Part shown: positions 11,793 through 43,060 of the stretch, one piece after another
Layout of the letters: each line of letters starts with the position of its first letter
Numbering within the stretch: the first letter of the stretch is position 1
Source: Nitrospirota bacterium
GTDB lineage: Bacteria > Nitrospirota > UBA9217
Direction of reading: 5' to 3'
NCBI GenBank assembly: GCA_963751455.1
Contig: CAVVUN010000002.1
Span: 611,505 to 675,504, forward strand
Length of the DNA: 64,000 bases
Translations under genes and position numbers: made by a program
Notes under the pieces: model-generated
Told to the model about the DNA's origin: nothing
Databases searched by the model: none
What the model saw: only the letters and a program-made list of their open reading frames with translations

Positions 11793-11887
11793 ACAGAATG
11801 ATGGCACATTAGACGAAAAACAGCAGAACAAGCCATATATAAGATTTTACCTCTCAGTTACTTTTCCAGCAAAGGAGGTTGAGCGAC

Positions 11888-12382
11888 ATGACGCCGTTAT
11901 CGACAAAAGACGCCGGAAATAGGAAGATGAAACGATCGAATATCATCGTTCTGGCCGTAATCGCGGGCTTCATTGCCATTGCCGTGGTAATATTCCTTCT
12001 GCACGGTCCGCCTCAGCTGCTGGCAAAGTCTGAGTCGCCTGATTTCTGCTCGCAATGCCATGTAATGGAGTCCCAGTACGAGTCGTGGATGCACCAGGGT
12101 GCGCATAGAAGAAAACTCTGCGTTGATTGCCATTTGCCCAACGATAATGCGGCGGTCCATTATGTGTGGAAGTCCATTGACGGGTTGAAAGACGTTTTAT
12201 TCTTCTATTCGGGTATGACGCCTGAGCATATAGAACTCTCTTCTCATGGAGCGGACGTCGTGCGTGCAAACTGCATACGGTGCCATGAAAGCACCGTATC
12301 CATGATAAGCCATGAAAGAAAATGCTGGGATTGTCACCGTCGTATCATGCACAAGCGCAGCGGGTCGATTGAAACGGTTTAG
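11888..12382 (+). CDS. nrfH: Cytochrome c nitrite reductase small subunit (tetraheme)
   Basis: N-terminal TM helix; CSQCH, CVDCH, CIRCH, CWDCH; directly upstream of nrfA. Alternative start at 11926 region not excluded. Confidence 0.93.
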   Translation: MTPLSTKDAGNRKMKRSNIIVLAVIAGFIAIAVVIFLLHGPPQLLAKSESPDFCSQCHVMESQYESWMHQGAHRRKLCVDCHLPNDNAAVHYVWKSIDGLKDVLFFYSGMTPEHIELSSHGADVVRANCIRCHESTVSMISHERKCWDCHRRIMHKRSGSIETV

Positions 12383-12448
12383 TCCTGATCATAGGATGAC
12401 TTCAGCCGGGGCGTGAAGCCCGGATTATGCCGACAAGGAGGGGTAATC

Positions 12449-13912
12449 ATGAAAAAAGTCAACTATCAAGTCCTTATTGCACTGGCAATGATCATGACCG
12501 TCATATTCATTATCGGCTGCTCTTCACCTAAAAGCGAACAGGTCAGGCCGGTAAAAATATCTGACGGCGAGATGGACCCGGGCGTTTGGGGGAAGGCGTA
12601 TCCCGATGAATATGAACTGTGGAAAAGGACCGGCGAACCCACGCCGGCAGATAAGAGTAAATACAAAAAGGGGTACGATGCGGACAAGGTCGTGTACGAT
12701 AAGCTTGCAGAATTCCCCTATATGGCGCTGCTGTTCAACGGATGGGGGTTTGGCGTTGAATACAATGAACCGCGCGGACATCTATTCATGGTAAAGGACC
12801 AGCTTGAAGTCGATCCGTCACGGGTAAAGGCGGGGGGCGTCTGTCTCAGCTGCAAATCTCCCTATGCAGCCGGTCTGGAGAAATCCATGGGCCGGGATTA
12901 TTATTCCGGGCCGTATAAGGAAGTCCTCGGCCGGATTCCCGAAAAGCACCGACAGCTCGGCGCAGCATGTATAGATTGCCACGACAACAAGGATATGTCG
13001 CTCAAGATCTCCCGCCAATTCACTCTTGGCGCAGCCTTGAAGGATATGGGAGTGGAGGAGGACAAACTCACGCGGCAGGAGATGAGGACGGCCGTCTGCG
13101 CGCAGTGTCATGTCACGTACGTGGTGGGCAAGGACAAGGACATGAAATCCGTTTCGGTCTTTTTCCCGTGGCAGGGAAGCAAATGGGGCGGCATCAGCAT
13201 CGAGAATATCATCAAGAAAATCCGGAGCGATCCCTCCTACGGGGAATGGAAACAGAACGTAACCGGTTTTAAACTTGCATTCATACGGCATCCGGAATTC
13301 GAGATGCTGTCGAATAACAGTGTGCACTGGAAAGCGGGCGCATCGTGCGCCGACTGCCACATGCCGTACACCAAGATAGGGGTCAGCAAGGTCTCGAACC
13401 ACCGCGTCATGAGCCCGCTCAAGAACGGCATGCGGCCGTGCATGCAGTGCCATACTGAAACTGCCGAATGGCTTACCCAACAGGTGACTGCCATCCAGGA
13501 CAGGACCGCAGCGCAGATGATCCGGTCCGGGTATGCGACCGCAACGGTTGCCAAGCTTTTTGAAATGACGCACAAGGCAAAGGAGGCCGGCAAGAAGATT
13601 GATCAGGGTCTGTATGACAAGGCAAAGGACTATTACGAAGAGGCATTTTACCGCAGCGTTTTTGTGGGTGCTGAGAATTCCGTCGGTTTCCATAATCCAA
13701 CCGAGGCCATGAGGATCCTCGCGGACTCTACTGCATTTGCGACGAAGGCGGAAGCGCTTCTTCGCCAGGCGCTGACAGTCGCAGGAGTAGACGTGCCGAT
13801 ACAGGTCGACCTTGAACTGCATAAATATCTCGACAACAGGGGAGAAAAGAAACTGAAGGGGAACCCCAAATTCGAGATTAAGGACCCGACCGGGGTGCAG
13901 TATATGTTCTAG
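12449..13912 (+). CDS. nrfA: Ammonia-forming cytochrome c nitrite reductase
   Basis: YNEPRGH, CLSCK (Lys-ligated heme 1), CIDCH, CAQCHVTY, RHPEFE, CADCHMP, CMQCH, ENSVGFHNP. Confidence 0.96.
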   Translation: MKKVNYQVLIALAMIMTVIFIIGCSSPKSEQVRPVKISDGEMDPGVWGKAYPDEYELWKRTGEPTPADKSKYKKGYDADKVVYDKLAEFPYMALLFNGWGFGVEYNEPRGHLFMVKDQLEVDPSRVKAGGVCLSCKSPYAAGLEKSMGRDYYSGPYKEVLGRIPEKHRQLGAACIDCHDNKDMSLKISRQFTLGAALKDMGVEEDKLTRQEMRTAVCAQCHVTYVVGKDKDMKSVSVFFPWQGSKWGGISIENIIKKIRSDPSYGEWKQNVTGFKLAFIRHPEFEMLSNNSVHWKAGASCADCHMPYTKIGVSKVSNHRVMSPLKNGMRPCMQCHTETAEWLTQQVTAIQDRTAAQMIRSGYATATVAKLFEMTHKAKEAGKKIDQGLYDKAKDYYEEAFYRSVFVGAENSVGFHNPTEAMRILADSTAFATKAEALLRQALTVAGVDVPIQVDLELHKYLDNRGEKKLKGNPKFEIKDPTGVQYMF

Positions 13913-13916
13913 CTAG

Positions 13917-14122
13917 TGTAGTGTCTCTTAAATGGATGGTGTTATATGATCATTTCTCATCGAACTTATCTTCGCATAAATATTTGCTGATGAATTTGTA
14001 GGGCGACCCTTTAGGGTTGCTGCTGTTCCGGCGCTTTCAGCAAGGCTAAAGCCTTGCCCTACAAGTTTGGCTGCGGCCTACTGCCGCGCTATGATAACAC
14101 CAGTCGTTTGTGAGACACTACA
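13917..14122. mobile_element. MITE with TGTAGTGTCTC TIRs, copy 1 of 3
   Basis: Near-identical to 44910-45113 and 48837-49040. CTAG on the left only. Encloses the GTAG-REP doublet GTAGGGCGACCCTTTAGGGTTGC / GCAAGGCTAAAGCCTTGCCCTAC. Confidence 0.9.
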
Positions 14123-14214
14123 GTAAATCCAACAGTTCTTCACTTATTTTTCTGTCATCCTGAACGAATCGAAGAATCTCATGTATATGAAAAAGCGAGG
14201 TTCTTCCTTCGGAA

Positions 14215-14274
14215 GGCGTGGACGCGCCAGTATGGGTCGATCTGGAGCAGCAGAAATACCTGGACAACAGGGGA
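14215..14274 (+). pseudogene. Relic of a second nrfA 3' end
   Basis: Translates as GVDAPVWVDLEQQKYLDNRG versus GVDVPIQVDLELHKYLDNRG in nrfA. Confidence 0.7.
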
Positions 14275-14358
14275 GCGGAAGTGCTTCTGCGGCAGGAGCT
14301 GCTGCCCCACGTGAAAATCCCTAAATTGTGTCAGATTTTATTTAATGCGTTCCTGCGC

Positions 14359-14398
14359 AAAAAAAACCCGGAAAGCAGAAGCTCTTTCCGGGTTTTTT
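14359..14398. terminator. Bidirectional terminator
   Basis: A8-CCCGGAAAG...CTTTCCGGG-T6 between convergent genes. Confidence 0.85.
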
Positions 14399-14412
14399 AA
14401 CTCCAGCGATGA

Positions 14413-14754
14413 TCACATGCAGATAGTATAGCCGCCATAGATAGAGCAGTTTGTGAAGCCATAGGTTGCACAGGTCTGGCCGCCATGAAACACGCCCGAC
14501 ATATAGCCGCAGGTCGCCTCGTCAACGCCCTCATAACAACCCCAGCTGTTGACTATACAGGCCCCTGTTCCGCCGCCACCCCCGCCACCTCCACCGCCAC
14601 TGCCGGCATCGTTCGTTCCGGTGCCACTACTGACGATATCATCGATGGTCGTGCGAGGCGCAGTCATCTTATCTCCAGTGCCGCAGCCGAGAGCGAGGAG
14701 CAGCAAGGTGAGGGTGATCAAAATCATTAAAAAAAATACAATTTTATTCGGCAT
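14413..14754 (-). CDS. Small lipoprotein with a poly-Gly linker and Cys-rich C-terminal domain
   Basis: AAGGAG RBS, lipobox ALGC, long Gly run, six Cys in GACIVNSWGC...TICM. Confidence 0.7.
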   Translation of the reverse strand: MPNKIVFFLMILITLTLLLLALGCGTGDKMTAPRTTIDDIVSSGTGTNDAGSGGGGGGGGGGTGACIVNSWGCYEGVDEATCGYMSGVFHGGQTCATYGFTNCSIYGGYTICM

Positions 14755-14832
14755 GGTTTCTCCTTTTGCGCTCGCTGATCCGGGTCGTTTATGCTTTATG
14801 AGCAGTTCCCGGAACAACGCCGTCGGCTTTTC

Positions 14833-15369
14833 CTAGAAATAGAAATTCGCGTTCACGCCGACAGTACGCGTGCCGAAATAGTTCGAATCAGTATCGGCGT
14901 TATCATCGCTGATCAGCCCAAACCCGACGCCCACGGCGCCCTCGAGGCTGAATTGCTTGCCAAGGAAATATTCCCCGCCGAAAACAGCGGATACATCAAC
15001 CTGGGTCAGGTCTATGCCGGCATTGTCATCTTCAAACATGGCAAGGGACAATTTCGCGCCGACGAAGGGAGCAAAATCATCGACCTTCAGATACTTGCGT
15101 ACGCCGCCTGCAAGGCTCAGATAGGTGGCGTCAGCGTCTCCGCCATCAACCCGAAGTCCGAACCCGGCGATGATTGCCATGTCTTTGGTTATTAAATAGC
15201 GCGCACTGAGATCAACGACATCAGCGGCATTTCCAACGGTCCCCACAACACTGTCTCCCATTCCCACGCTGATGCTGGTCTTTCCCTGCTGCAGGCTGTT
15301 TGCTGCAAATGCGCTTCCGATTCCGATTGCCAGGACGAGTGCGACTGTGATTACGATAATTCTTTTCAT
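14833..15369 (-). CDS. Small outer membrane beta-barrel protein
   Basis: Signal peptide ending AFA, alternating strands, C-terminal NFYF; AAGGAG RBS. Confidence 0.85.
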   Translation of the reverse strand: MKRIIVITVALVLAIGIGSAFAANSLQQGKTSISVGMGDSVVGTVGNAADVVDLSARYLITKDMAIIAGFGLRVDGGDADATYLSLAGGVRKYLKVDDFAPFVGAKLSLAMFEDDNAGIDLTQVDVSAVFGGEYFLGKQFSLEGAVGVGFGLISDDNADTDSNYFGTRTVGVNANFYF

Positions 15370-15706
15370 GTATTCTCTCCTTTAAACATTAGTTTGTGAT
15401 GTGTGAAATTTGGAGAAAAAAGCAAAACTGCGACATAGCTAGTGTTCGGAGCTTATTAGCCCACCTCCTTTCAGGTGATTGCACAATACTGCAGAATTTA
15501 ATTAATTCTAAAGTATTGCAATTAATATTATATAGTACCGAAGCTGTGTTTTTGTCAAGGTCATTTTTCAACTATTTTTTGTTTTTTTTTGGTAAGTTTT
15601 TGGCTTTTGATCAAAGAATAATGCGTGCATGCAACCAAAAATAGCTTGTGAGACTACGAAATATGGAAGCAAAATTAACGCGGGGTTATCAGCAGGACTC
15701 AAAAAT

Positions 15707-16702
15707 TTAATAGTGGTAGGCCTGACTTCCCACCTTGCCGCTGAAAATAATATAGCTGTATACCGTATAACCGATAACGATCGGCAGAATAATTGCGGCT
15801 CCCCAGAGTGTAAACTCAAGAGTTTTTATCTGAGCCGCAGCATCGACGAACGTCACATCAGGCGGAATGGCATAGGGATACACAGACGCAAACAACGAGA
15901 TATATCCGGCGAAAAAGAAGGACACACTGAAAATAAACGGCATGCGTTCACGGCGCACGCGGATGCTTTTGATAATCCCGTAAAAGGATAACACGCTGAG
16001 TGCAGGAAGAAGCCAGAGAAAATAGATTCGCGGCAGCGAAAGCCAGTTTGAGAGCACCATCGGGTAATGGAAAGGCGTCCAAACAATCATCACGATTTGA
16101 AAGATCAGCACGACACAGGCTGACCAGAAGGCCTGATGAAACGCCCTTTCCTGCACTCTTCCCGTTGTTTTGAGGATGAGATACGTGGAGGCGAGAAGAA
16201 CATAGCCTGCTATCAACCCGGTTGCAGCGCAAATTGAAAAAAGATTCAGCCAGTCTAAAGAACCGCCTGAGAAGCTGCTTTCAGCCACCCGGATTCCGGA
16301 CAGGATCCCGCCGAGTGTAAGCCCCTGGGACACCACTGCGGTCAGGCTGCCCAGGAAAAATGCCCTGTCCCATCTGCTTTTTCGTGAAGCATTGCTCCGA
16401 AATTCGAAAGAAACACCGCGGAAGATAAGGCCGTACAAAAATGTAAAGAGAGGAACATACAGGGCGCTGAAGAGCACGGCGTACATCATCGGAAATGCGA
16501 CAAAAAGGCCGCCTCCGCTGAAAACAAGCCAAGTCTGGTTGGCGTCCCAGACCGGCGCTATGCTGTTCATAAGCGTGTTGCGTTCTTCCTCGCTTTTCGT
16601 GAACGGAAACAACAGCCCGATTCCGAGGCCGAAGCCGTCCAGGATTACGTAGAGGATGAGGGCAAGCCCAAGAAGGGCGATCCAGATGTTGACAAGGTCC
16701 AT
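15707..16702 (-). CDS. cydB: Cytochrome bd oxidase subunit II
   Basis: LYVILDGFGLGIG, PVWDANQTWLV, RGVSFEFR. Confidence 0.95.
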   Translation of the reverse strand: MDLVNIWIALLGLALILYVILDGFGLGIGLLFPFTKSEEERNTLMNSIAPVWDANQTWLVFSGGGLFVAFPMMYAVLFSALYVPLFTFLYGLIFRGVSFEFRSNASRKSRWDRAFFLGSLTAVVSQGLTLGGILSGIRVAESSFSGGSLDWLNLFSICAATGLIAGYVLLASTYLILKTTGRVQERAFHQAFWSACVVLIFQIVMIVWTPFHYPMVLSNWLSLPRIYFLWLLPALSVLSFYGIIKSIRVRRERMPFIFSVSFFFAGYISLFASVYPYAIPPDVTFVDAAAQIKTLEFTLWGAAIILPIVIGYTVYSYIIFSGKVGSQAYHY

Positions 16703-16779
16703 GAATACCGCCAAAGAAGTGTCAGAGTGTCGAAGTATCAAGTGTCACAGTGTCGATTCGTCGAAGAAACTCTGCCTAT

Positions 16780-18141
16780 TTATGATAGCGGCCTCATCCC
16801 GGCGGGCCGCTGTACAGCCGGTATGGGACTGGAAAGGTCCGGTCCCCGCTGTATTATCTTGAGAACGTAATATGCATAGATTGAACCGATGGCCGCAAAG
16901 ATGATCAGAAAAAGGGTCAGGGACCAGACAACATTGCCGGCAGGGATAGGAGAGATGCCCTCAGCGGTCCTCATCATATTGTATACGAGCCAGGGCTGGC
17001 GGCCGACTTCGGTCGAGATCCATCCTGCTTCTACTGCTACAAAACCGAGGGGATGCGTGATCAGGAGCGTCCGGAGAAAAGGGCGGTGTTCGAAAAGCCT
17101 CCTTTTTCTCAGGAGCAGCACTGCCCATACCATGACGAGAAAATACAGCGTTCCGATTCCTATCATGATCCTGAACGCCCAGAACAAGACCGGGACATAG
17201 GGCCGATTTTCTCTCCTGACTTCCTTCAGTCCGCTTACCCTGCCTTTTAAGGAATGAGTGGCCAGGAGGCTGAGTCCGCTCGGTATGGAAATCTCAAGGA
17301 TGTTTCGTTCAGCCTCCATATCAGGAAAGGCAACGACTGCGAAGTCAGCTCCCCGGTCGATGTTCGTATCCCAGTGACCTTCCAGGGCCGCCAGCTTGAC
17401 GGGTTGATGCGTGAACACGCTCCGGCCGCTCATGTCGCCCAGTACGATCTGAAGCGGCGCAAATACCGCGGCCATTGCGAGCGCAAGCCCGAGGGAACGA
17501 CGGAAGAGCCTTATGTGGGAGTTGTTCAGCAGGTAATACGCGCTGACGCCTGCGACCACGAATACGGAGGTTTCGAGCCCCGCCATGGTCATATGATACA
17601 CGCGGACCCAGGTGGAAGGATTCAGGATTGCACTATTAAAATCAATGACGGTGAATCTGCCATCCATCACAGCAAACCCCGCAGGCGTCTGCATCCAGGA
17701 ATTTGCGGCAAGGATCCAGAACGAGGAAATGATTGTCCCCGCTGCCACAAGGCATGTGGCAAGGAAATGCATGTGACGGCTGACCCTGTTCCACCCGAAC
17801 AGCATGATGCCGAGAAAGCCCGATTCGAGAAAGAACGCGGTCATGACCTCGAAGGCCAGAAGAGGGGAAATCACGTTGCCCGCCATCTGGGAAAAACGCG
17901 AAAAGTTTGTGCCGAATTCAAATTCGAGCACGATCCCGGTGACGACGCCGACTCCGAAATTGACAGCGAAGAACCTCGTCCAGAAGCGGTACATACGGTA
18001 ATACAGCTCTTCCCTGGTCCTGAGCCAAAGAAACTCAATGACAACAAGGTAAACCGAAAGCCCGATGGTCAGCGTGGGGAAGAGAATATGGAACAGCGTT
18101 GTTACTCCGAATTGTATCCGGGAGAGCAGAACGGTATCCAT
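16780..18141 (-). CDS. cydA: Cytochrome bd oxidase subunit I (short Q-loop)
   Basis: SRIQF...FHILF, GVVTG..LEFEFGTN, FFLE, NSWMQTP, QPVKLAALE, EVGRQPW. Confidence 0.96.
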   Translation of the reverse strand: MDTVLLSRIQFGVTTLFHILFPTLTIGLSVYLVVIEFLWLRTREELYYRMYRFWTRFFAVNFGVGVVTGIVLEFEFGTNFSRFSQMAGNVISPLLAFEVMTAFFLESGFLGIMLFGWNRVSRHMHFLATCLVAAGTIISSFWILAANSWMQTPAGFAVMDGRFTVIDFNSAILNPSTWVRVYHMTMAGLETSVFVVAGVSAYYLLNNSHIRLFRRSLGLALAMAAVFAPLQIVLGDMSGRSVFTHQPVKLAALEGHWDTNIDRGADFAVVAFPDMEAERNILEISIPSGLSLLATHSLKGRVSGLKEVRRENRPYVPVLFWAFRIMIGIGTLYFLVMVWAVLLLRKRRLFEHRPFLRTLLITHPLGFVAVEAGWISTEVGRQPWLVYNMMRTAEGISPIPAGNVVWSLTLFLIIFAAIGSIYAYYVLKIIQRGPDLSSPIPAVQRPAGMRPLS

Positions 18142-18420
18142 GCAATGCCTCGCAGTGAAGGTATATCATTAATGATAGCACGAGCGGATTTAGTCAGTTA
18201 CAAGTCAAATTCTTCTCAAAATGGGGAGAATATTTACCGCGAAGGCGCGAAGAACGCGAAGGACATCAAAACAAAGAGGATTTTGTTTTAATTCAAGACT
18301 TGCAAGGTTTTCTTCGCGACCTTCGCGCCTGGTTTATTGCTGTCAAGTATTTTTATTCTTTTTTATGTTTTATCTTTCTTCAAGCTTTGGCTTAAAAGAA
18401 TGACTTCGATCTTAGGTGCG

Positions 18421-18573
18421 GCACCTCGCCCAATCCTGGTATTAGAGGGTCTCGACAGAGCCCAAACCTTGCTTTATTGGGACTAAGGTGCAAGCGGGGA
18501 GTTATGTAAGCTTTGCGAGAAGGTCGGCATAGCCGCCTTAGATGGCGCGAACGATAATCTCCCCCGCCTGCAC
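18421..18573 (-). ncRNA. Putative IS110 bridge RNA (target-binding loop, then donor-binding loop)
   Basis: Two stem/internal-loop/hairpin units. Loop segments TTCGCGCC and TCGCAAAG match the target; AAAGCAAG and AATACCAG match the circle junction. Confidence 0.8.
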
Positions 18574-18588
18574 GCTAAAACATTTGAG

Positions 18589-19848
18589 TTACGCAGCCTC
18601 GAGCTGAAACGATTTTTTTATGTAATCTTCTTCGTAAACGCTATGATCACGTACGACGGCAAATATGATTCCGAGAAGCTTCCGCGCGACAGCGATCAGC
18701 GCTTTGGTCTTGATCATTCCACGATCGAGATACCGCCGATACTGTTGGTGCATTACGCCGTCTTTGCGAACGGTATTGAGCGCGGCAAAGTACAGAAGTT
18801 TCCGGAGCAGCGGCCGGCCTCGCTTGGAAATGCGGCGCGTCCCTCTATGCTTGCCCGAGCTGATCTCAAAGAGGTCAAAACCGGCGAGCTTCATGATCTC
18901 CCCGAGGGTGCTGAACTTTCGGAAATCGCCCACTTCGCCGATGAGACCGGCAGCGGTGACCTCGCCGATCCCTTTGAACGAAAGAATCGAGTTGCTGTAG
19001 GGAATCTGCTGAAGTTGAAGAACCATCTCCGCTTCCAGTTCGGAGTTAAATTGCTCAGAGACCTCCATAGCGGCAAGAATCGCTCGGATCTCTCGGAGGA
19101 TGCTGGCTTGGCCTTCGGTTACGCCTACGGACGATTCTGCGGCCTCGTAGAGCGCTTGGGCTCGGTCTGCTCCAAGCTTGCCCCGGCTCACCTTTCTGAT
19201 CGTCTGGGTGAGCTTGTCAACGCATTGCGCCGCAATCTCCTTTGGTGTCGGGCAGTGTTTCAAAAGATGTTTCGCAGTTGCCGTCTTTACATCTTTCATT
19301 ACCTGCTTAAACTCTGGAAAAATGATCGCGATCAAGCCCTGAAGCTGATTCACCAATGCCGTGTGACGCTGGGTGCTCCTCTCTCTGGCCTGGGTCAGCC
19401 TCCGAAGCTCGGCGGCGGGACCTTCCGGGATCACCACGCTCAGGGCATGTCCAAGCTCTATGATGTCGGCAATGACCTTGGGGTCTTTCTGGTCCGTCTT
19501 GTTCGGAGAATTGCCCTGGAGCTCTTTAACTCTCTTGGTGTGCATGGGATTTACCTGTACAAGTCGCACGTCTCGCGCCCGCATGAAATGCACCAGAGCC
19601 TCGGCGTACGACCCGGTGGATTCGTATCCAAAGACAATTTCGTCGAGATTATGGATTTCCTTCGCCCGGGATATCCGCTGCCAGAATTCGTGGAAACCCG
19701 ACCCGTTGTTCGAGAAAGGAAAACTCTTCACGTCGGTTCCATCCGGACAGCGCCAGTACCCGTAATGTTTGTCTTTGCCCATATCAGCGGTCACGATAAG
19801 AGATTTTCCATTGACTACTCTAAACTTTTTTGTTTTAATCTTCTTCAA
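18589..19848 (-). CDS. IS110 DEDD recombinase/transposase
   Basis: TTG start with GAGG RBS; D(MGK), ESTG, KTDQKD, GIGEVTAAGLIGE, SSGK...ISKRG...LR, AVARKL. Confidence 0.95.
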   Translation of the reverse strand: MKKIKTKKFRVVNGKSLIVTADMGKDKHYGYWRCPDGTDVKSFPFSNNGSGFHEFWQRISRAKEIHNLDEIVFGYESTGSYAEALVHFMRARDVRLVQVNPMHTKRVKELQGNSPNKTDQKDPKVIADIIELGHALSVVIPEGPAAELRRLTQARERSTQRHTALVNQLQGLIAIIFPEFKQVMKDVKTATAKHLLKHCPTPKEIAAQCVDKLTQTIRKVSRGKLGADRAQALYEAAESSVGVTEGQASILREIRAILAAMEVSEQFNSELEAEMVLQLQQIPYSNSILSFKGIGEVTAAGLIGEVGDFRKFSTLGEIMKLAGFDLFEISSGKHRGTRRISKRGRPLLRKLLYFAALNTVRKDGVMHQQYRRYLDRGMIKTKALIAVARKLLGIIFAVVRDHSVYEEDYIKKSFQLEAA

Positions 19849-20056
19849 GGCTATACCTCTTTCTTCGGTTTGGATTACCAACTTGCCAGCTGGTTTCAAA
19901 TCGAGAAAGAGTATAGCCTTTTTTAAGTAAGGCTCAATTGCTTTCTGCAATATAGCAAGCTTCGCGGTTCCAAGGTTTTAGTTCCGGATTTCCCGGGTTA
20001 GGATCAGAAGCGCTTCTTAATCCCCGCAAAAGAGTCTTTGCCGCATGCTATTTGGA

Positions 20057-20446
20057 TCACCAACTGCTTCTTATGTCGACGATATCCTGGATAAGCGCCG
20101 AAAGTTTTCGAGCTTTTTTTTGCGGTCCGCTGTTCAATGCTTCAAGAAGCGGATCACAGAAATACCATGTGCATCTCCACGGTCTCAGCCAGCGGGGAGT
20201 AATACAGCCGTTCAGACCCATGAACTGGCACGGGCCGTCGGGGAGGAGGGAAGGATCGTACAGGGGGAGAGCCTGCCCAAGAGCCGAGACATAGCGGGCG
20301 TCCACGGCATCGAGGAGGCAGCGCCGCTGTTTGCAGCACACGTCACGGCAGTCCGGACATGTCCGGGCAGTGTATGCGTCTATCAGCGGTGATAGCTCGA
20401 TAAGCAGCGCTTTCAGCTTTTGGGCAATTGCTTGTTCTCCGGTCAT
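20057..20446 (-). CDS. Cys-rich putative Fe-S/Zn protein (CxxCxxxCC, YkgJ-like)
   Basis: CPDCRDVCC...CQFM...GC......RPWRCTWYFC; ATGA overlap with the cyoE stop. Confidence 0.7.
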   Translation of the reverse strand: MTGEQAIAQKLKALLIELSPLIDAYTARTCPDCRDVCCKQRRCLLDAVDARYVSALGQALPLYDPSLLPDGPCQFMGLNGCITPRWLRPWRCTWYFCDPLLEALNSGPQKKARKLSALIQDIVDIRSSW

Positions 20447-21311
20447 GGCATTTTGGGGAACACGCCCCGGATTATTACGACGGACATCAGGAGCACGACA
20501 TAGCCGTTCAGCATTGCGAATGCGGAGAGCGCGTGATCCGGCGTCGAGCGCGGAGTAACGAGCGAATGGCCTTTTATGACGATGTTGATGGCTGCAGGCA
20601 GAAGCAAAAAATAGAGGAGGCCGGGCTTGATCGCTCCGAAAACAGGAAGCAGAAGCGCCGAGGCGGCGGCAGAGCATATCCACGCGAAGGTGATGCGGGC
20701 TATCTGCTTTTTATCGAGCAGCTTGGTGAGCGACGGAAGGCCGGCCAGTTCATATTCCTCGCCGTGATGCAGGACCTGCAGCCAGAAATGGGGCACCTGC
20801 CACAGAAAAAAACGAAACAGAGGATGAGGAGCCGGGGATCGCTCAAACCGCCGCCGGCCGCGACCCACCCGATGGCAGGAGGGATCATGCCGACAAGCGC
20901 ACCAGGCACTGCGGCAAAAGCCGTCAGACGCTTCAGGTTCGTGTAGACGCCGTTGTAGCAGAATGCGGCACTCACGCCCAGTATGAAAGCGGCTTTTCCA
21001 AGCAATGAGAGCAGCGCGAGTCCGCAAAAAATAAGCATGAGCGCAAAGGCATGGGCCTGTATCGGAGAAAGAGCGCCTGAAGGCAGGGGACGTTGTTTCG
21101 TTCGGTCCATGCGGGCGTCGACATCCTGCTCCTGCCACTGGTTAAGCGCGGAAGCGCCGGCGCTCAACACGAAGACGGAGACCGCAGCAACCAGTCCGTT
21201 TGAAAAAGACGCGGGTGATTCCAGCAAATAACCTGCAAGTGCCGAAAAAGCGGCATATACTGCAATGGGAAATCTGCAAAGTCGCCCGTAGGTATTGAGA
21301 ATAGCAGTCAT
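20443..21311 (-). pseudogene. cyoE: Protoheme IX farnesyltransferase (heme o synthase), frameshift in a T7 run
   Basis: NQWQEQDVDARMDRTKQRPLPSG and YNGVYT.LKR in one frame, WQVPHFW...EYELAGLP in the other. T8 instead of T7 at 20806-20812 restores the frame. Confidence 0.88.
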
Positions 21312-22255
21312 TTCAAGTTTTTGATGTATGCGACGATCCGATCAATCTCTTTGTTCGTCAGCTGCCCCTGCTGCGAAGGCATGATCGGCGGATACCCCTT
21401 TACCCGGTCGAGCTCCGGATTCAGAAGCGTCTGCCTGATAAAGGCCTCGTCAACAACCACGCTGCGCTCTTTTCCCGTATTGATCACTGTTTCCTTTTTG
21501 CCGAACATCCCCTTGAAGGTCGGTCCTACGCTCGGCGTTCCGTCGATGCTGTGGCAGGAGATGCAGCCTTTTTCCCTGACAAGCTCCGCGCCGGATTCCG
21601 GCTCGGACGGTTCGGATGCGGCAGCGTGCTGCTCCTTCCCGGCCGCCGCAGCTTCTCTCCCGCCGTACCAGGCATTGAAATCCGCGAGGTTCATCACTTC
21701 CACTTTCGTGGTCATCCGTGCATGCGCGACCCCGCAGTATTCGGTGCAGAACAGATCGTAGGAACCGGTCTCATCAGGCTGGAACCAGAGATAGGTCTGC
21801 CTTCCGGGAACCGCGTCCTCCTTGATGCGGTATGCGGGGATGTAAAGACTGTGAAGTACGTCCTCTGATGTGATGAGCAGCTTCACCGGTTTCCGGAGCG
21901 GTACCCGGAGCACGCTGTCCTGTTTGCCGTTCTCATACTCGAACGTCCAGGAAAACTGACGTGCCGTGACCTTGATCGGCATCGCGTCAGGCGGGACCGT
22001 TCTCATATATTGAAAGCCCTTCCACCCGGCGAAAAAAATGAGCAGCACGAGGATCGTCGGGATAACGGTCCAGAGTATCTCGATCGAAACACTTTCCTTT
22101 ACGTCCTCGGGTTGCGGATTTCTCTTTCTGCTGTACCTGATCGTGAAGAAAATCATGACCCCGGTATTCAGTAACAGAAGGGTAAGGGAAATCCCGAGAA
22201 TAAAGAAGAAAACGCTGTCTGCGGGATTCGACATATTTGGCCAGCCGGTTAACAT
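21308..22255 (-). CDS. coxB: Cytochrome c oxidase subunit II with C-terminal cytochrome c
   Basis: EILWTVIP, DVLHS, CuA motif CTEYCGVAHARM, CISCH...MP. Confidence 0.95.
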   Translation of the reverse strand: MLTGWPNMSNPADSVFFFILGISLTLLLLNTGVMIFFTIRYSRKRNPQPEDVKESVSIEILWTVIPTILVLLIFFAGWKGFQYMRTVPPDAMPIKVTARQFSWTFEYENGKQDSVLRVPLRKPVKLLITSEDVLHSLYIPAYRIKEDAVPGRQTYLWFQPDETGSYDLFCTEYCGVAHARMTTKVEVMNLADFNAWYGGREAAAAGKEQHAAASEPSEPESGAELVREKGCISCHSIDGTPSVGPTFKGMFGKKETVINTGKERSVVVDEAFIRQTLLNPELDRVKGYPPIMPSQQGQLTNKEIDRIVAYIKNLK

Positions 22256-22268
22256 ATAATTCCTTTAA

Positions 22269-22358
22269 GAATTTCAAATATCAAATTTCAAATTGCAAAA
22301 TGCAAAGTAAGGATCAATTCAAACTCAATTTGCAATTTACAATTTGCACTTTGCAATA
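22269..22358. repeat. Inverted arrays of 7-mer repeats (TTKCAAA / TTTGCAA)
   Basis: ATTTCAAATATCAAATTTCAAATTGCAAAATGCAAA ... TTTGCAATTTACAATTTGCACTTTGCAAT; related array at 29820-29900. Confidence 0.8.
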
Positions 22359-22363
22359 TTCTT

Positions 22364-22645
22364 TTACCTGTACCATATGTCATAAAATGTGAGCCAGATT
22401 ATGATCGTTATGGTTCCGATGGGCACAAAGAACAGCAGTTTGAATATTCTTTTTTCATACTTGAGGTGCATAAAGAACCAGAGCACGAGGCTGGCTTTTG
22501 TCGATGCGATCAGCAAATTCATCGCCATGCTCCATTGACCCATGTGCATCCGTGCAGCCTGGATCGTTATCGCAGTCAGGCCGAGTAGGGCGATCCACGT
22601 AATCATGAACGTGCGTGCAGTGGCGTGCTCTTTGTTTGCTGTCAT
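22364..22645 (-). CDS. coxD: Cytochrome c oxidase subunit IV
   Basis: Three TM helices, KASLVLWFFMHLKYE. Confidence 0.9.
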   Translation of the reverse strand: MTANKEHATARTFMITWIALLGLTAITIQAARMHMGQWSMAMNLLIASTKASLVLWFFMHLKYEKRIFKLLFFVPIGTITIIIWLTFYDIWYR

Positions 22646-22660
22646 TGCGGCTCCTTCGTT

Positions 22661-22960
22661 TCAATCAAGTGTTCTATTGCAGTGCCTGCAGCGTTTCAGA
22701 GGAAGAAGGGACCAGAAAAATAGTTCCATTCCGCAGACGTTAAGGGGCCTGAGCAGTACCGGGACGCGGCAATCCGGACACCGGACAAGGAACGCATACA
22801 AAGTATATGCTATAACGGTCAGAGCCAGGTATGCCAGAACCATCAGGTGACCAGCCTGAAAATCCCAGGCCCCGAACCCGAGCAGAAAGAACAGGCCAAG
22901 CCAGCAGATGACGATTATTATATTTTTGGATCGCCGGTTCATGATGGCCGGATTCCTCAC
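22661..22960 (-). CDS. Hypothetical membrane protein with a CxxC...CxxC zinc ribbon
   Basis: Two TM helices, CPDC and CRHC; GTGA overlap with the coxC stop. Confidence 0.65.
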   Translation of the reverse strand: MRNPAIMNRRSKNIIIVICWLGLFFLLGFGAWDFQAGHLMVLAYLALTVIAYTLYAFLVRCPDCRVPVLLRPLNVCGMELFFWSLLPLKRCRHCNRTLD

Positions 22961-23568
22961 GTAATGAGATAGAAGAGCGGAAACAGGTATATCCAGATGA
23001 TGTCTACGAGGTGCCAGAACAGCCCGGTATTCTCAAGTTTTATATAGTCATTGCTCGAAATGACGCCCCGGCCGGTCAGTACGAGCGTAAACGCTATCAG
23101 GCCCGCGCCTATCAGAACGTGAACGGCATGAATGCCGGTCATCACGTAGTAGAGTCCGAAATACAGAATCTTTCCGTGGCTCATCGCGAGCAGTTCAGGT
23201 GAATTCGGGAACACGCCGTGCCGGATATGGCTGCTCCATTCAAAAAACTTGTCGACCAGGAAGGCGGCCGCCAGCACGAGAGTAAGGGCCTGGAAGAGCA
23301 TTGACAAACGCTTTTCGCCCTTTTTCACTGCCAATATGGAAAGGGCCATAGTCAGGCTGCTCGTCAACAGGATGACGGTATTGACAGCCCCGAGCGCTAC
23401 GTTCATGTCCTTCCCGGCTTCGTGAAAATCGGCCGTATGAACCGTCCGGTATACCGCGTACACCAGGAACATGCCGCCGAACAGCAGAATCTCCGTAAAC
23501 AGGAAAAGCCACATGCCGAGCTTTGCACCGACGTAATCACGATGTTCGATGTGAGAAGTTTCGTTCAT
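22957..23568 (-). CDS. coxC: Cytochrome c oxidase subunit III
   Basis: GMWLFLFTE, NTVILLTSS, TGIHAVHV, FWHLVDIIW. Confidence 0.95.
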   Translation of the reverse strand: MNETSHIEHRDYVGAKLGMWLFLFTEILLFGGMFLVYAVYRTVHTADFHEAGKDMNVALGAVNTVILLTSSLTMALSILAVKKGEKRLSMLFQALTLVLAAAFLVDKFFEWSSHIRHGVFPNSPELLAMSHGKILYFGLYYVMTGIHAVHVLIGAGLIAFTLVLTGRGVISSNDYIKLENTGLFWHLVDIIWIYLFPLFYLIT

Positions 23569-23582
23569 AAAATGGGATTATC

Positions 23583-23658
23583 GCAGAGAGCAGAGCGCAT
23601 AGCGCATGGGGTCAATATTTCGCACTTACGCTTTGCTCCATGCTCTATGCGCCATGCG
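23583..23658. repeat. Inverted arrays of 7-mer repeats (GCATAGC / GCTATGC type)
   Basis: GCAGAGAGCAGAGCGCATAGCGCAT ... CTTTGCTCCATGCTCTATGCGCCATGC; second copy at 47297-47380. Confidence 0.8.
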
Positions 23659-23660
23659 GG

Positions 23661-25247
23661 TCAGCTGAACTGATATGGCCCTTTCGTTACTTCAGGAATT
23701 ACTTCAAAATTATCCGCAGGCGGGGGCGAGGCTGTCTGCCACTCGAGCGATGCGCCGCTCCAGGGATTGTTGCCGGACTTCGGCCCGGCCCAGATCGAAC
23801 GGATCAAATTATAGAACATGATGAACAGGCCGGCCGCCAGGATCCAGGAACCGATTGTTGAAATAAGGTTCGGTGTATTGAACCGCGGCAGGTAGTCGTA
23901 GTACCGTCTGGGCATACCCTGCCAGCCGAGGACGAACATGGAAAAATAGAGCATATTGAACCCGACGAACAGAAGGTAAAAAGCCAGTTTGGCCAGGTGC
24001 TCTTCATAGAGCCTGCCGAACATCTTCGGGAACCAGTAATGGAGACCCGCGAAAAAGCCGAAGGCAGTGCCCCCGAACATTACATAATGGAAGTGCGCCA
24101 CAATGAAATGAGTGCCGTGAATATGCAGGTTCGTAGCCAGCGCTCCGTTCACCAGGCCTGTCAGTCCGCCGATGGAGAACAGAAAGATGAAGCCCAGGGT
24201 ATAGAGAAGCGGGGCATCAGTCGAGATTGAACCCTTGTAAAGGCTTGCGATCCAGTTGAAGACCTTTACGCCGCTCGGAACCGCAACGATAAACGTAAGT
24301 AGCGAAAAAAGCATCCGTGCGGTATCGCTCATGCCGCTCGTGAACATATGGTGGCCCCAGACGAGGTAGCCGACGAACGCGATGGCGAGGCTGGAGGCTG
24401 CTATCGCCGTATATCCGTAGATGTTTCGTCGGGCAAATACGGGAATAATGTCGGACACCACACCCATTGCGGGGATGATCATGATATATACGGCAGGGTG
24501 GGAATAGATCCAGAACATATGTTCGAACAGGATAGGGTCCCCGCCCTTGGCAGGATCGAAGAAACCGATACCGAAGAACCGTTCCATGATGATCAATAAA
24601 AGTGTTATTGCAAGCACGGGAGTGGCCAGGAGCTGGACCCACGAGGTCGCATAGATCGCCCAGGTGAAAAGAGTCATGCGTCCCCAGGTCATTCCAGGCG
24701 CCCTTAGCCGGTGGATCGTAGTCAGGAAGTTCATCCCGGTAAGCGTAGAGGAAAGGCCGATCAGGAAAACGCCGAAGACGGCAAGAGAGATATTGGTGCC
24801 CGTCCGGATACTGTACGGAACATAGAATGTCCACCCGGTATCCGGGGGGCCGCCGCCGGTAAAAAGGGATGTGACCGCGAGCGCAGCGCCGGCTATGAAT
24901 AGCCACCAGGAAAGAATGTTGATCCTGGGGAATGCGACATCGCGCGCACCGATCTGGAGGGGGATAATAAAGTTCCCGAACGCCGACGGGATGCCGGGGA
25001 TGATGAACAGGAAGATCATGACGACGCCGTGCAGGGTGAAGATCGCATTATACGTGGCCGGGCTGAACAGGTTCATGCCCGATTTGATCAGCTGCAATCG
25101 CAGCGTTAGTCCAAGGCAGACACCGACAAAGAAGAAGGAGAGCATCGTCGCCAGATAGAGCATGCCGATGCGCTTGTGGTCCGTGGTAAAGAGCCACCCG
25201 AATATGCCCGGGTATCCGCCGGGAGTTGTATAAAAGGATGTTTGCAT
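23661..25247 (-). CDS. coxA: Heme-copper oxidase subunit I, A2 type
   Basis: TDHKRIG, TLHG, GWTFY, FWIYSHPAVY (YS motif of A2), VWGHH, HFHY, GMPRRY. Confidence 0.97.
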   Translation of the reverse strand: MQTSFYTTPGGYPGIFGWLFTTDHKRIGMLYLATMLSFFFVGVCLGLTLRLQLIKSGMNLFSPATYNAIFTLHGVVMIFLFIIPGIPSAFGNFIIPLQIGARDVAFPRINILSWWLFIAGAALAVTSLFTGGGPPDTGWTFYVPYSIRTGTNISLAVFGVFLIGLSSTLTGMNFLTTIHRLRAPGMTWGRMTLFTWAIYATSWVQLLATPVLAITLLLIIMERFFGIGFFDPAKGGDPILFEHMFWIYSHPAVYIMIIPAMGVVSDIIPVFARRNIYGYTAIAASSLAIAFVGYLVWGHHMFTSGMSDTARMLFSLLTFIVAVPSGVKVFNWIASLYKGSISTDAPLLYTLGFIFLFSIGGLTGLVNGALATNLHIHGTHFIVAHFHYVMFGGTAFGFFAGLHYWFPKMFGRLYEEHLAKLAFYLLFVGFNMLYFSMFVLGWQGMPRRYYDYLPRFNTPNLISTIGSWILAAGLFIMFYNLIRSIWAGPKSGNNPWSGASLEWQTASPPPADNFEVIPEVTKGPYQFS

Positions 25248-25267
25248 AAAGTATTTGCTATGCTTTG

Positions 25268-25872
25268 GTAGCCGCAGGCTTCAGCCTGCGTGTTTTTGTT
25301 CGCTACATGATGCTATACAAAATACCATTCAGGTCACAACCGAGTGACCCGCTGTATGAGTAATCCCGCCAGTTAAGTACCAAACCTTTTCTGACCGGAT
25401 TGTCGAGAATATACCTTATGTGTACTTCTAATTTATCGTCGGACCGTATGATATGATCATAAAAATCTTTTTGCCATTTTAGCTCAGGCCTGTGCGACGA
25501 TAACCAGAACCCGGTTTGTTGTTTATAATTTATTGCCGTTTTCCATAGATCAGAAGCATCTGATTGACCACTTATCAGTAAGTGCAGATGATCCGGCATG
25601 AAACAATAAACCGGCACGATGCAATTTTCTTTCTCTATAGTCTTTCTGAGAATATCTTTGAACACGCTTACGATATTTGCCTCAGCGAAAGACGGCTTTT
25701 TATCCTTCATGCATAATGTGAATGATACGGACACCGGTCCCTTATACAATTCCCTGGGCAACCTATGATTTTTTTCCCGTATCGACATATTTATTATGAG
25801 GCGCAGGCTGAAGCCTGCGGCTACCAAGCATGTGTCTTCCGTGAACAAACGCAGGCTAAAGCCTGCGGCTAC
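25268..25872. repeat. Three GTAG-family REPs flanking the RAYT gene
   Basis: GTAGCCGCAGGCTTCAGCCTGCG at 25268-25290; inverted copies at 25802-25824 and 25850-25872. Confidence 0.92.
25303..25788 (-). CDS. REP-associated tyrosine transposase (RAYT, HUH Y1)
   Basis: YCFMPDHLH, WQKDFYDHIIR, YILDNPVRKGL; flanked by inverted REPs. Confidence 0.92.
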   Translation of the reverse strand: MSIREKNHRLPRELYKGPVSVSFTLCMKDKKPSFAEANIVSVFKDILRKTIEKENCIVPVYCFMPDHLHLLISGQSDASDLWKTAINYKQQTGFWLSSHRPELKWQKDFYDHIIRSDDKLEVHIRYILDNPVRKGLVLNWRDYSYSGSLGCDLNGILYSIM

Positions 25873-25883
25873 CGATTTTACCG

Positions 25884-26678
25884 TTATGTGTCTCTCTCGC
25901 GTTTTCTTCGTCCGGAAAGCATCAGATACGCAAAAAAAGACCCGATGAACAGGACCATCACTGTCCCGGTGATTTTCAGGATATTGAAGACATAGGACTT
26001 TTTTACCGGGTCATAGCTGAAACAGTACATAAGCGCACGGCGGGAAGGAGAGCCGACCTTGCCTTCGGCTGCTTCGGTCAGGGCCATGGTCATCTCGAAC
26101 GGCAAAAAACCCATGCCCTGGATGTAGCGGACGATCTTTCCGTCCCTGGTCGCGACGACGAGCGTGAGGGGATGTGAAAAATCGTGTTCGCCATCGCGCT
26201 GGAACCTGAAGCCGATCGAGTCGGTAACCGCTTTAATGTTTGAAGCGTCTCCGGTGACGAACTTCCAGGACTCCTCGGGAAACGGCTTGCCGATCGCCTT
26301 CAGATAATTTCTTTTTTTATCTCGAGCGATTTCGGGTGTGTCCCGCTCGTCAAAACTGAGCGCGATAACCGAGTAGTCGATGCCGGGCTTTACGAGCTGC
26401 ATCCTGCCCAGCACTTGTGCGAGGCTGTTCAGGAGCATGGGGCATTCGTGCAGACACCCGAAATATACCGGCGCGATGATCGTCGGCTTGTCGATCATGT
26501 CTTTTAAACGCATTTTTCGGCCGGCATCGTCCGTAAGCACGGCATCAGGGGCAACATATCCGTTCAATTTTTCATCGAGGCTCACGTCGGCTGTTGGTAT
26601 CACGCTTCCGTTGCCTGAAGCCTGCGAAGCTGGTGCCAGCGTTATCAACAAGAGCAGAATCGATATTTTCATGGGCAT
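25884..26678 (-). CDS. SCO/SenC copper chaperone
   Basis: YFGCLHECP, SFD..DTP, FSHP, YCFSYDP; first gene of the cox operon. Confidence 0.9.
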   Translation of the reverse strand: MPMKISILLLLITLAPASQASGNGSVIPTADVSLDEKLNGYVAPDAVLTDDAGRKMRLKDMIDKPTIIAPVYFGCLHECPMLLNSLAQVLGRMQLVKPGIDYSVIALSFDERDTPEIARDKKRNYLKAIGKPFPEESWKFVTGDASNIKAVTDSIGFRFQRDGEHDFSHPLTLVVATRDGKIVRYIQGMGFLPFEMTMALTEAAEGKVGSPSRRALMYCFSYDPVKKSYVFNILKITGTVMVLFIGSFFAYLMLSGRRKRERDT

Positions 26679-32206: not shown

Positions 32207-32437
32207 TTACCGCGAAGGCGCGAGGAGCGCGAAGGAAACCATACGACAAAATCTTATTTCTGGTTTAAACCAGTTTCAATTCCTGCTTTCCTCGCGTCCT
32301 TCGCGCCTTCGCGGTTCCAAGGTATTTTTTCATCGGTCTGAGGCCTTGCCTCGTTAAAGATTTTCTTACGCTTCTTTGCGGCTTTGCGCGAGACGCCTTG
32401 GCTTTGATCTTTTGGTTCCGGTTTGTCCGCGTTAGGG
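32207..32437. repeat. Empty 9-mer palindromic element plus adjacent repeat arm
   Basis: TTACCGCGAAGGCGCGAGGAGCGCGAAGG ... CCTCGCGTCCTTCGCGCCTTCGCGGTTCC; ends GGTTCCGGTTTGTCCGCGTTAGG. Confidence 0.85.
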
Positions 32438-42475: not shown

Positions 42476-42597
42476 GGTATTCCTCCGTATAGGCGATCAG
42501 CTTATCATCGTTCATTATTTTCCGCAAGATGGAACTTTCCGAATCCTTACCGCGAGGTCGCGAGGGACGCCAGGAAAGCCTTGAGTGCGCAATCACA

Positions 42598-42974
42598 TCA
42601 CAGGTTATTTACCATTCGCTTGATGCCGTCTTCATGCGTGGCACGTGCCAGTTCAATATAAATCCAAGTTTGCAATCCTTCATCTTAAGATAGGTCAGCA
42701 ATTGAGCCTCATGTATCGGGAGAAGCCGTTCCACGGTCTTGTGTTCGACAATTACGCAGTCATCGACGATCATGTCGATTCGGTATCCCGCTTCAATGGA
42801 GACACCTCTGTACAGAATCGGTAGGACCACTTCACACATCACCTGTGAGCCTTCCTGTTTCAGGTCATATTCCATGGATCTCTGATACGCTGATTCGAAC
42901 AAACCCGGTCCCAAGGCGGTGTGCACTCTCATGGCTGCGGCAACGATTTTACCAGCGACTGTTTCAATGTCCAT
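42598..42974 (-). pseudogene. GxxExxY protein (PD-(D/E)XK nuclease fold), one-base frameshift near the C-terminus
   Basis: VHTALGPGLFESAY, YRIDMIV...VEHK, HEAQLLTYLK. The usual DGIKRMVN tail is in the adjacent frame (shift at about 42631). Confidence 0.88.
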
Positions 42975-43060
42975 CGGCCCTGATCCCTTCCGGACTTCCT
43001 CGCGTCCCTCGCGCCTTCGCGGTTCCGAAGTTTTAATCCGGGTGTTTCCCGGGAAGTTAA

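Follow-up and report, generated by a model that had tools for sequence, protein, structure and literature searches.

An IS110-family insertion sequence with a predicted downstream two-loop bridge RNA directed at a multicopy repeat in a Nitrospirota genome

We describe an intact IS110-family insertion sequence from a Nitrospirota bacterium, the 3' non-coding end of which very probably gives rise to a two-loop bridge RNA predicted to steer the recombinase into a 14-base site within a host repeat. The element lies in a stretch of 64,000 nucleotides (contig CAVVUN010000002.1, positions 611,505 to 675,504), called the window here, to which all coordinates refer (Table 1). In dozens of relatives the letters of the guides change in step with the landing site, and it is therefore likely that the RNA does the aiming. 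The mechanism is known, and both a guide RNA downstream of the gene and the targeting of repeats are known in the IS110 family; the layout is mixed and the class of target new, in a little-studied branch of the IS110 kind.

Results

The element and its recombinase

CT cores at 18329-18330 and 19960-19961 bound the element, the left junction, at 18329, reading CTTCGCGC-CT-GGTTTA and the right junction, at 19961, ATAGCAAG-CT-TCGCGG. Removal of the element rebuilds an empty site (30 nt, CT and 22 nt) that matches contig C9 at 54 of 54 bases without a mismatch, and both ends are thereby fixed. Insertion thus involves a short shared CT core and no target duplication beyond it, the empty site being restored exactly. 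In seven multi-copy groups, each from a single genome, the AG core is likewise the limit of identity among copies, the target consensus aside. The perfect subterminal repeat does not exceed 8 bp, and measures 4 bp in 68 of the 133 elements with both ends. The non-coding ends comprise 111 nt upstream of the gene and 258 nt downstream, and the predicted RNA lies in the latter. A preliminary description of the window had reported the CT core, the extent 18329..19961 and the downstream position of the RNA, all of which hold. By blastn, tblastn and a search with the RNA model, the element is single-copy in its own genome, so the same-element test rests on its relatives.

Table 1. Coordinates of the element, its predicted RNA and the host repeat within the window
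Feature	Position	Strand	Remark
IS110-family element, including both CT cores	18329..19961	minus	AG on transposase strand
Recombinase gene, 419 aa	18589..19848	minus	TTG start at 19848 behind GAGG ribosome site; start common to relatives
Subterminal inverted repeat, upstream copy TATTGCAG	19945..19952	minus	7 nt inside core
Subterminal inverted repeat, downstream copy CAGCAATA	18335..18342	minus	4 nt inside core
TTGACA, -35 half of predicted junction promoter	18341..18346	minus	
TATATT, -10 half of predicted junction promoter	19949..19954	minus	17-nt spacer across joined ends
Predicted target-binding loop	18488..18573	minus	stem / internal loop / hairpin unit
Left target guide UUCGCGC + core C	18544..18551	minus	8/8 to left target
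Right target guide CGCAA + core AG (CGCAAAG)	18511..18517	minus	6/7, one A-C mismatch at right-target position 2
Handshake bases CU, target loop	18509..18510	minus	complementary to donor positions 6-7 (AG)
Predicted donor-binding loop, simple internal loop	18421..18491	minus	stem / internal loop / hairpin unit
Left donor guide AAGCAAG	18468..18474	minus	6/7 to TAGCAAG
Right donor guide ACCAG	18436..18440	minus	5/5 to CT-GGT
Handshake bases GA, donor loop	18434..18435	minus	G complementary to target position 7 (C)
Left arm of host inverted repeat	18236..18261	plus	three 8-9-nt units; also unoccupied exact target at 18252(-)
Right arm of host repeat, part left of insertion	18312..18328	plus	holds left target TTCGCGC
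Right arm of host repeat, part right of insertion	19962..19968	plus	holds right target TCGCG
Unoccupied exact target in gene-less repeat pair	32299..32314	plus	core at 32307
Unoccupied near-target in upstream arm of GxxExxY gene	43007..43022	plus	core 43015; one difference (one wobble more)

A single open reading frame combines PF01548 (the DEDD domain) with PF02371 and scores 210.9 bits against NF033542, for which the cut-off is 140. The catalytic residues D22, E76, D119, D122 and S331, the last aligned with S241 of IS621, are present and are retained in 155-157 of the 157 family proteins; the SG of the motif is kept, and its P is replaced by L in 156 of the 157. At the position of the TTG start, relatives carry ATG, GTG or TTG. 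A longer reading frame from TTG 19950 was rejected as the start: it begins outside the predicted junction promoter and meets stops there in relatives. The 427-aa antisense frame (18643-19926) is taken as a shadow frame.

The insertion sequence sits between genes of a host region (11879-26678) that, to judge from translations, contains an NrfHA-like cytochrome c pair, cytochrome bd subunits and a heme-copper oxidase cluster. At their right ends, some relatives (seen among L007, L018, L077 and L001) carry 100-370 extra bases between the RNA and the end, which in a few of them include short inverted-repeat inserts.

A predicted two-loop RNA

The predicted bridge RNA is roughly 155 nt long, has two loops and lies 3' of the recombinase gene. 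An alignment of 41 diverse 3' ends of relatives resolves it into two units, each with an outer stem, an internal loop and an inner hairpin. In this alignment 97% of the cells are paired and 29 of the 39 pairs show compensatory change, more than in any of 500 shuffles (12.7 pairs) and compared with 7-13 in slid controls, over which the structure has the advantage of having come from the same alignment. Taken alone, the single-sequence fold is moderately unusual (z -3.2 over 258 nt; z -1.9 over 166 nt, with 7 of 200 shuffles equally good), so that the support for the structure comes from the alignment. A search of Rfam with the RNA gave no match at the gathering score, and no standalone promoter or terminator for it stood above chance.

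Upstream of the gene, a site of the form TTGAGC-16-TATACT (19910-19937, minus strand) overlaps a small hairpin and lies within chance. Its GGCTATACT part is common to most relatives, and it could drive low expression from integrated copies.

Guides follow the insertion sites of relatives

Four guide motifs are found on the minus strand, at 18551-18544, 18518-18511, 18475-18468 and 18443-18436, inside the loops 18573-18488 and 18491-18421, as had been described; when the first 200 nt of the 3' end were dinucleotide-shuffled 5000 times, no shuffle had all four in this order and spacing. Relatives were taken from two scans (the best 80 of 132 and the best 80 of 510 candidates), giving 160 loci with 51-93% identity to the protein, mostly from Nitrospirota, Deltaproteobacteria and Planctomycetota, and their ends were placed by conserved end motifs, with no use made of the guides. 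Of 161 sequences, 153 yielded a target loop that could be parsed, the other eight being cut short or interrupted; 32 were dropped for a missing flank, which left 121 loci with both flanks and 73 distinct guide pairs.

Across these guide pairs, the guide agrees with its own insertion site at 10.08 of 13 positions, compared with 5.04 on permutation and a maximum of 6.07 in 10,000 permutations. Left positions 1-7 match at 0.68-0.88 and right positions 1-5 at 0.78-0.96, and the concordant states include all four bases at nine of the 12 guide positions. Right position 6 matches at only 0.12 (0.21 when permuted), and the target is thus delimited as 7+2+5 = 14 nt, the layout of IS621. For the same reason the right target guide is set at 7 nt: the position, core and right-target pairing assigned to it in the preliminary description are retained, and the eighth base that it had included is rejected, one mismatch then remaining in the pairing.

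To remove the effect of shared ancestry, pairs were counted on branch-disjoint paths of a FastTree tree over the 12 positions. Both members follow their guide in 174 of the 268 tree-disjoint pairs and 38 more lean to their own guide (212 in all), with 49 ties and seven pairs against. The 13th position, used as a negative control, gave no pair that follows, three that lean, 14 ties and six against, out of 23. Guides also change about 5.6 times faster than the scaffold, with 79 of 360 guide sites differing among 30 close pairs and 165 of 4278 scaffold sites. Near-identical elements on contigs from three other studies differ in the left guide at 18545, 18547 or 18549, together with a change of the handshake base 18435 from G to A. 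The reading as a bridge RNA of IS621-type two-loop layout, for which a check of fold and covariation across homologues had been proposed, is upheld by both the compensatory pairs and the guide matches.

The guide fit is poor on the right side in L009 and L061 and on both sides in L067. In 11 of the 121 insertions the left guide fits best 1-2 nt out of register; these include the closest of the relatives listed, L081, in which the full 8-mer to the left of the core is read by the guide. In L081, L113, L124, L128 and L151 the shift is of one base and is found where the repeat has a 9-nt unit junction instead of an 8-nt one, which suggests that target position 7 can be paired by the core-C position of the left guide. 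L003, L004 and L005 are copies of one element that differ in register: in L004 the left guide and the handshake base fit exactly, and L003 and L005 have two extra bases beside the core.

Donor guides and handshake bases

The donor guides proposed for the element hold at six of seven bases on the left and, on the right, at all five (ACCAG). Among relatives they are near-constant, and rare variants of the ends are mirrored in them (CACG twice, GTAAG once, ATAAG eight times, ACAAG five times and ACTAG twice). Nearly all are concordant, the exceptions being one discordant left end and three imperfect right guides; in a second count, the right donor guide was located by seeking each element's own end.

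The handshake rule was defined by Hiraizumi et al. (PMC11208158). Of 85 distinct combinations, 64 have a donor-loop handshake base that pairs with target position 7, in 13 a handshake A faces a target C, and none has a handshake C, the base that would pair with its own donor. Over ten tree-disjoint pairs, seven follow the target and three tie. In the target loop, C occupies the handshake position in 84 of 98 and G in none. At the right end of L075, the first eight bases of the flank repeat that element's left end exactly before the sequences part, as would be expected from a donor-loop-only ('half-match') insertion.

Across the joined ends, the -35 and -10 boxes of the predicted junction promoter stand 17 nt apart in all 133 elements with both ends, a spacing that is partly built in because the ends were found with patterns for conserved end motifs. 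The circle junction was absent from the contigs of seven runs; one raw run had no coverage.

The host repeat and other landing sites

The 5.7-Mb genome contains 24 exact copies of the 16-mer site, where 0.009 are expected, in keeping with the multicopy repeat that had been named as the aim. Of the exact sites, which number at least 25, a single one is occupied. Two unoccupied sites already pointed out, at 32307 (exact) and at 43015 (one difference), were recovered, and a further one lies at 18252(-). Nowhere in the genome is the guide matched by Watson-Crick pairs throughout; among the 116 genome sites with at most one non-wobble mismatch, the natural site is the most frequent, with 24 (about 0.1 expected for the 14-mer). 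Allowing two mismatches from the 16-mer, 131 genome sites are found, which group into 95 elements; 35 of these are inverted pairs, in most cases separated by 50-110 bp. The arms of the repeat are runs of 8-9-nt units.

Nine GxxExxY loci (TIGR04256) read in the genome mostly show mirror-image unit arrays on both sides, and arms of the target's subtype frame two of the nine, one being 42598-42974. A GxxExxY gene lies within 500 bp of only one of the 95 repeat elements and in the flank of one of the 161 sequences searched (L118, 46 bp from the insertion), many flanks being short, and the target is therefore best described as gene-less copies of GxxExxY-type arms. The attribution of the target to a GxxExxY-type repeat is accordingly right as to the repeat class, as the framed locus and L118 illustrate, but seldom extends to the gene itself, and many relatives aim elsewhere.

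A mapping of other copies, which had also been suggested, gave none in the element's own genome; among relatives, 69 of the 121 insertions (66 by pattern and three by eye), about 57%, fall in this repeat class. They are spread over the tree with at least 14 class changes, a count that weakly resolved forks may inflate. The remaining insertions lie in other repeats or sites. L008 and L096 target the repeat found on either side of the Y1 transposase gene at 25303-25848, and at the insertion sites of two sub-clades, the L001 and L066 groups, no repeat is evident. For the motif classes other than GxxExxY the labels are provisional. The repeat is likely to be a harmless and abundant landing site between genes.

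The two repeat types can also be seen around genes within the window. At 42510-43030 a GxxExxY (PF13366) gene on the minus strand lies between mirror-image arrays of 8-9-nt units and carries a frame shift about ten codons before its usual end, either real or an assembly error. Most GxxExxY loci of the genome have their own variant of mirror arms, and gene-less arm pairs are common. At 25268-25872 three copies of a 23-nt palindromic GTAG repeat, a RAYT/REP-like unit, frame a Y1 (IS200-like, PF01797) transposase gene.

Discussion

Comparisons with published systems refer to the parts of the cited papers covered here. It is scarcely credible that the guide matches are leftovers of target DNA captured in the non-coding end, or chance, with the protein doing the targeting. 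Such a reading can appeal to the single copy of the element in its own genome and to a guide RNA predicted from sequence, but it leaves unaccounted for the concerted changes that recur along separate branches for both strands and both loops, as well as a scaffold with compensatory pairs, and RNA guidance has been shown for both IS110-family groups (PMC11208160, PMC11187229). A different matter is whether pairing, although necessary, is sufficient, or whether the hairpin or tandem structure of the repeat acts as a second recognition element, in which case the aim would be structured repeats rather than a 14-mer. ISPpu10 does require a target stem-loop, and an inverted repeat of at least 10 bp is present at 35 of the 105 rebuilt empty sites compared with 7 of 86 control positions. 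Nevertheless, the other 70 rebuilt sites have no such inverted repeat within 120 bp, and the L001 and L066 groups insert where no repeat is evident, so a general need for structure, while conceivable, seems to us somewhat unlikely. A rule that all targets are palindromes, considered in the course of the analysis, is unsupported by the same 35 of 105 sites.

It is also unlikely that only the target loop guides, as a seekRNA of 70-100 nt, with the donor loop belonging to a precursor or serving only some steps and the ends being recognised mainly by the protein, through the short inverted repeats. Short RNAs of the target loop are the predominant form in ISEc11, ISPa11 and ISKpn4 (PMC11187229) and make up 90.4% of the reads in CazIS110-1, in which, however, full transposition required the full RNA. 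In the present element, the GCAC at 18491-18488 is common to both loops, so that the outer stems compete, and donor guides vary little; yet the donor loop has compensatory stems of its own and its guides follow the variants of the ends. Moreover, the donor-loop handshake base follows the target, which implies that the donor loop must be present at strand exchange.

With both loops of the bridge RNA guiding, the reading that we prefer, a working model can be proposed. The element would leave as a circle, by excision or copy-out, by analogy with work on IS621 and IS1111; which of the two routes applies is disputed for the IS110 family. The joined ends would form a TTGACA-17-TATATT promoter, from which the recombinase gene and then the RNA would be transcribed, the RNA being cut out of the transcript. 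Four recombinase subunits would bind the two loops, with the target loop opening TTCGCGC-CT-TCGCG and the donor loop TAGCAAG-CT-GGTTT; Ser331 and the DEDD site would cut next to CT, and the handshake bases would favour insertion. The one mismatch of the guide coincides with a position at which copies of the repeat differ, which would widen the set of usable copies.

Bridge recombinases have been described for IS621 and ISCro4 (Durrant 2024 PMC11208160; Hiraizumi 2024 PMC11208158). With IS621 the element shares a recombinase of the DEDD and Ser type, the CT core, the 14-nt target as 7+2+5, the order of target loop and then donor loop, each with a simple internal loop and with the left guide before the right, the handshake bases after each right guide, the predicted junction promoter and insertion into an intergenic repeat. 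The donor geometry on the CT strand, ATA-7 nt-CT-4 nt-TAT, is also the same. In contrast to IS621, gene and RNA are reversed relative to the CT strand, which places the RNA behind the gene and gives the IS1111 order of matches. The protein has 419 aa rather than 326 and is weakly similar (E 1.7e-9), no 5' stem-loop is seen, the repeat differs, and the left guides cover one core base or none.

ISEc11, ISKpn4, ISPa11 and IS4321 of the IS1111 group (Siddiquee 2024 PMC11187229) share with the element a long downstream non-coding end, a top-strand match 5' of the bottom-strand match on the transposase strand and a 7-nt extension at the upstream end, and ISPa11 likewise targets a repeat. Unlike these, the element and its relatives have inverted repeats of 4-8 bp, not 11-13, placed in the element 7 and 4 nt inside the cores rather than 7 and 3 nt from the ends; its protein exceeds the 330-350 aa of that group and reads G--L----SG instead of GL-P----S(t)G; and the donor loop has the form of a simple internal loop where theirs is a multi-loop. 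In a 20-row tree with unresolved deep forks, in which IS4321 is the only named IS1111-group reference, the protein falls outside the IS4321/ISShdy1 clade. Filing as IS1111 was rejected on repeat length, protein size and the tree. The element also departs from the canonical IS110-group layout, with its long non-coding end and RNA upstream, but agrees with that group in its short subterminal repeats, in a length within 315-455 aa and in a G--P----SG-type motif with L for P. Judged by sequence, the protein groups with long IS110-type enzymes, whereas the position of the RNA and the order of the guides are IS1111-like.

The family could be a separate IS110 lineage, one that arrived at an IS1111-like layout with its ends flipped, kept the full guide grammar of IS621 and has become a specialist parasite of the repeat arms of other small selfish elements, re-aimed often, its handshake re-tuned, its left guide sometimes slipping and the structure of the repeat perhaps needed; this is a tentative proposal, which we hold to be a little short of probable. 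If true, one 155-nt scaffold would have been re-aimed many times between GxxExxY arms, RAYT-type REPs and other repeats. The element shows that the pairing rules of IS621 apply also in a lineage whose gene and RNA are arranged the opposite way, a point relevant to the divergence of IS110 and IS1111. It also marks a family of intergenic repeats as a preferred landing site. The element represents a distant, naturally re-programmed family of bridge recombinases in which all four guides and both handshake positions can be read, and which therefore lends itself to direct testing as an editor beyond the IS621-like clade to which screens have so far been confined.

Some IS110-family members are known to carry a 3' non-coding region, and natural re-aiming has been reported (Siddiquee 2024 PMC11187229). 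From the text descriptions, the element can be likened to the 3'-non-coding IS110s ('group highlighted in green', PMC11187229 Fig. 1b), with which it shares a long IS110-type protein and a downstream end, and to the minority with a downstream end, of the same layout, in Durrant 2024 Fig. 6b (PMC11208160); the parts of the two papers covered contain no guide map or RNA model for this group. Repeat targeting by IS110s has been recognised since 2006, as in the REP-targeting ISPpu9, ISPpu10, ISPa11 and ISRm19 (Tobes and Pareja 2006 PMC1525189; PMC12288879). Fixed-base insertion into a multicopy extragenic inverted repeat, with AG/CT at both ends, is common to these and to our element, whereas the target here is a repeat of 8-9-nt tandem units like the arms of GxxExxY (PF13366), and sister elements of the family target several other sequence types. 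We found neither the RNA of this clade nor this repeat or GxxExxY as an IS110 target described in the literature searched. A 2026 preprint (bioRxiv 10.64898/2026.10.21.760802) has modelled 32,190 bridge RNAs with 86 models, and its supplements, as well as Durrant Supplementary Table 5, may include the clade. A search by motif for an ISfinder relative, within the part of the tree table covered, found none.

The nearest relatives with named records are Bacillota IS110s at 32-35% identity (Sporomusa, Clostridium, Cytobacillus, Lachnospira and Anoxybacillus), which form one supported clade (99/98) with the family of the element. The RNA model of the element's own clade gave no match in these Bacillota relatives. 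By eye, the long IS110s of Bacillota (L179-L182 and L186) have a different conserved tract 3' of the gene, in which a donor-guide-like GGAAT/GGAAG motif mirrors their upstream end, and they are likely to constitute a sister bridge-RNA family.
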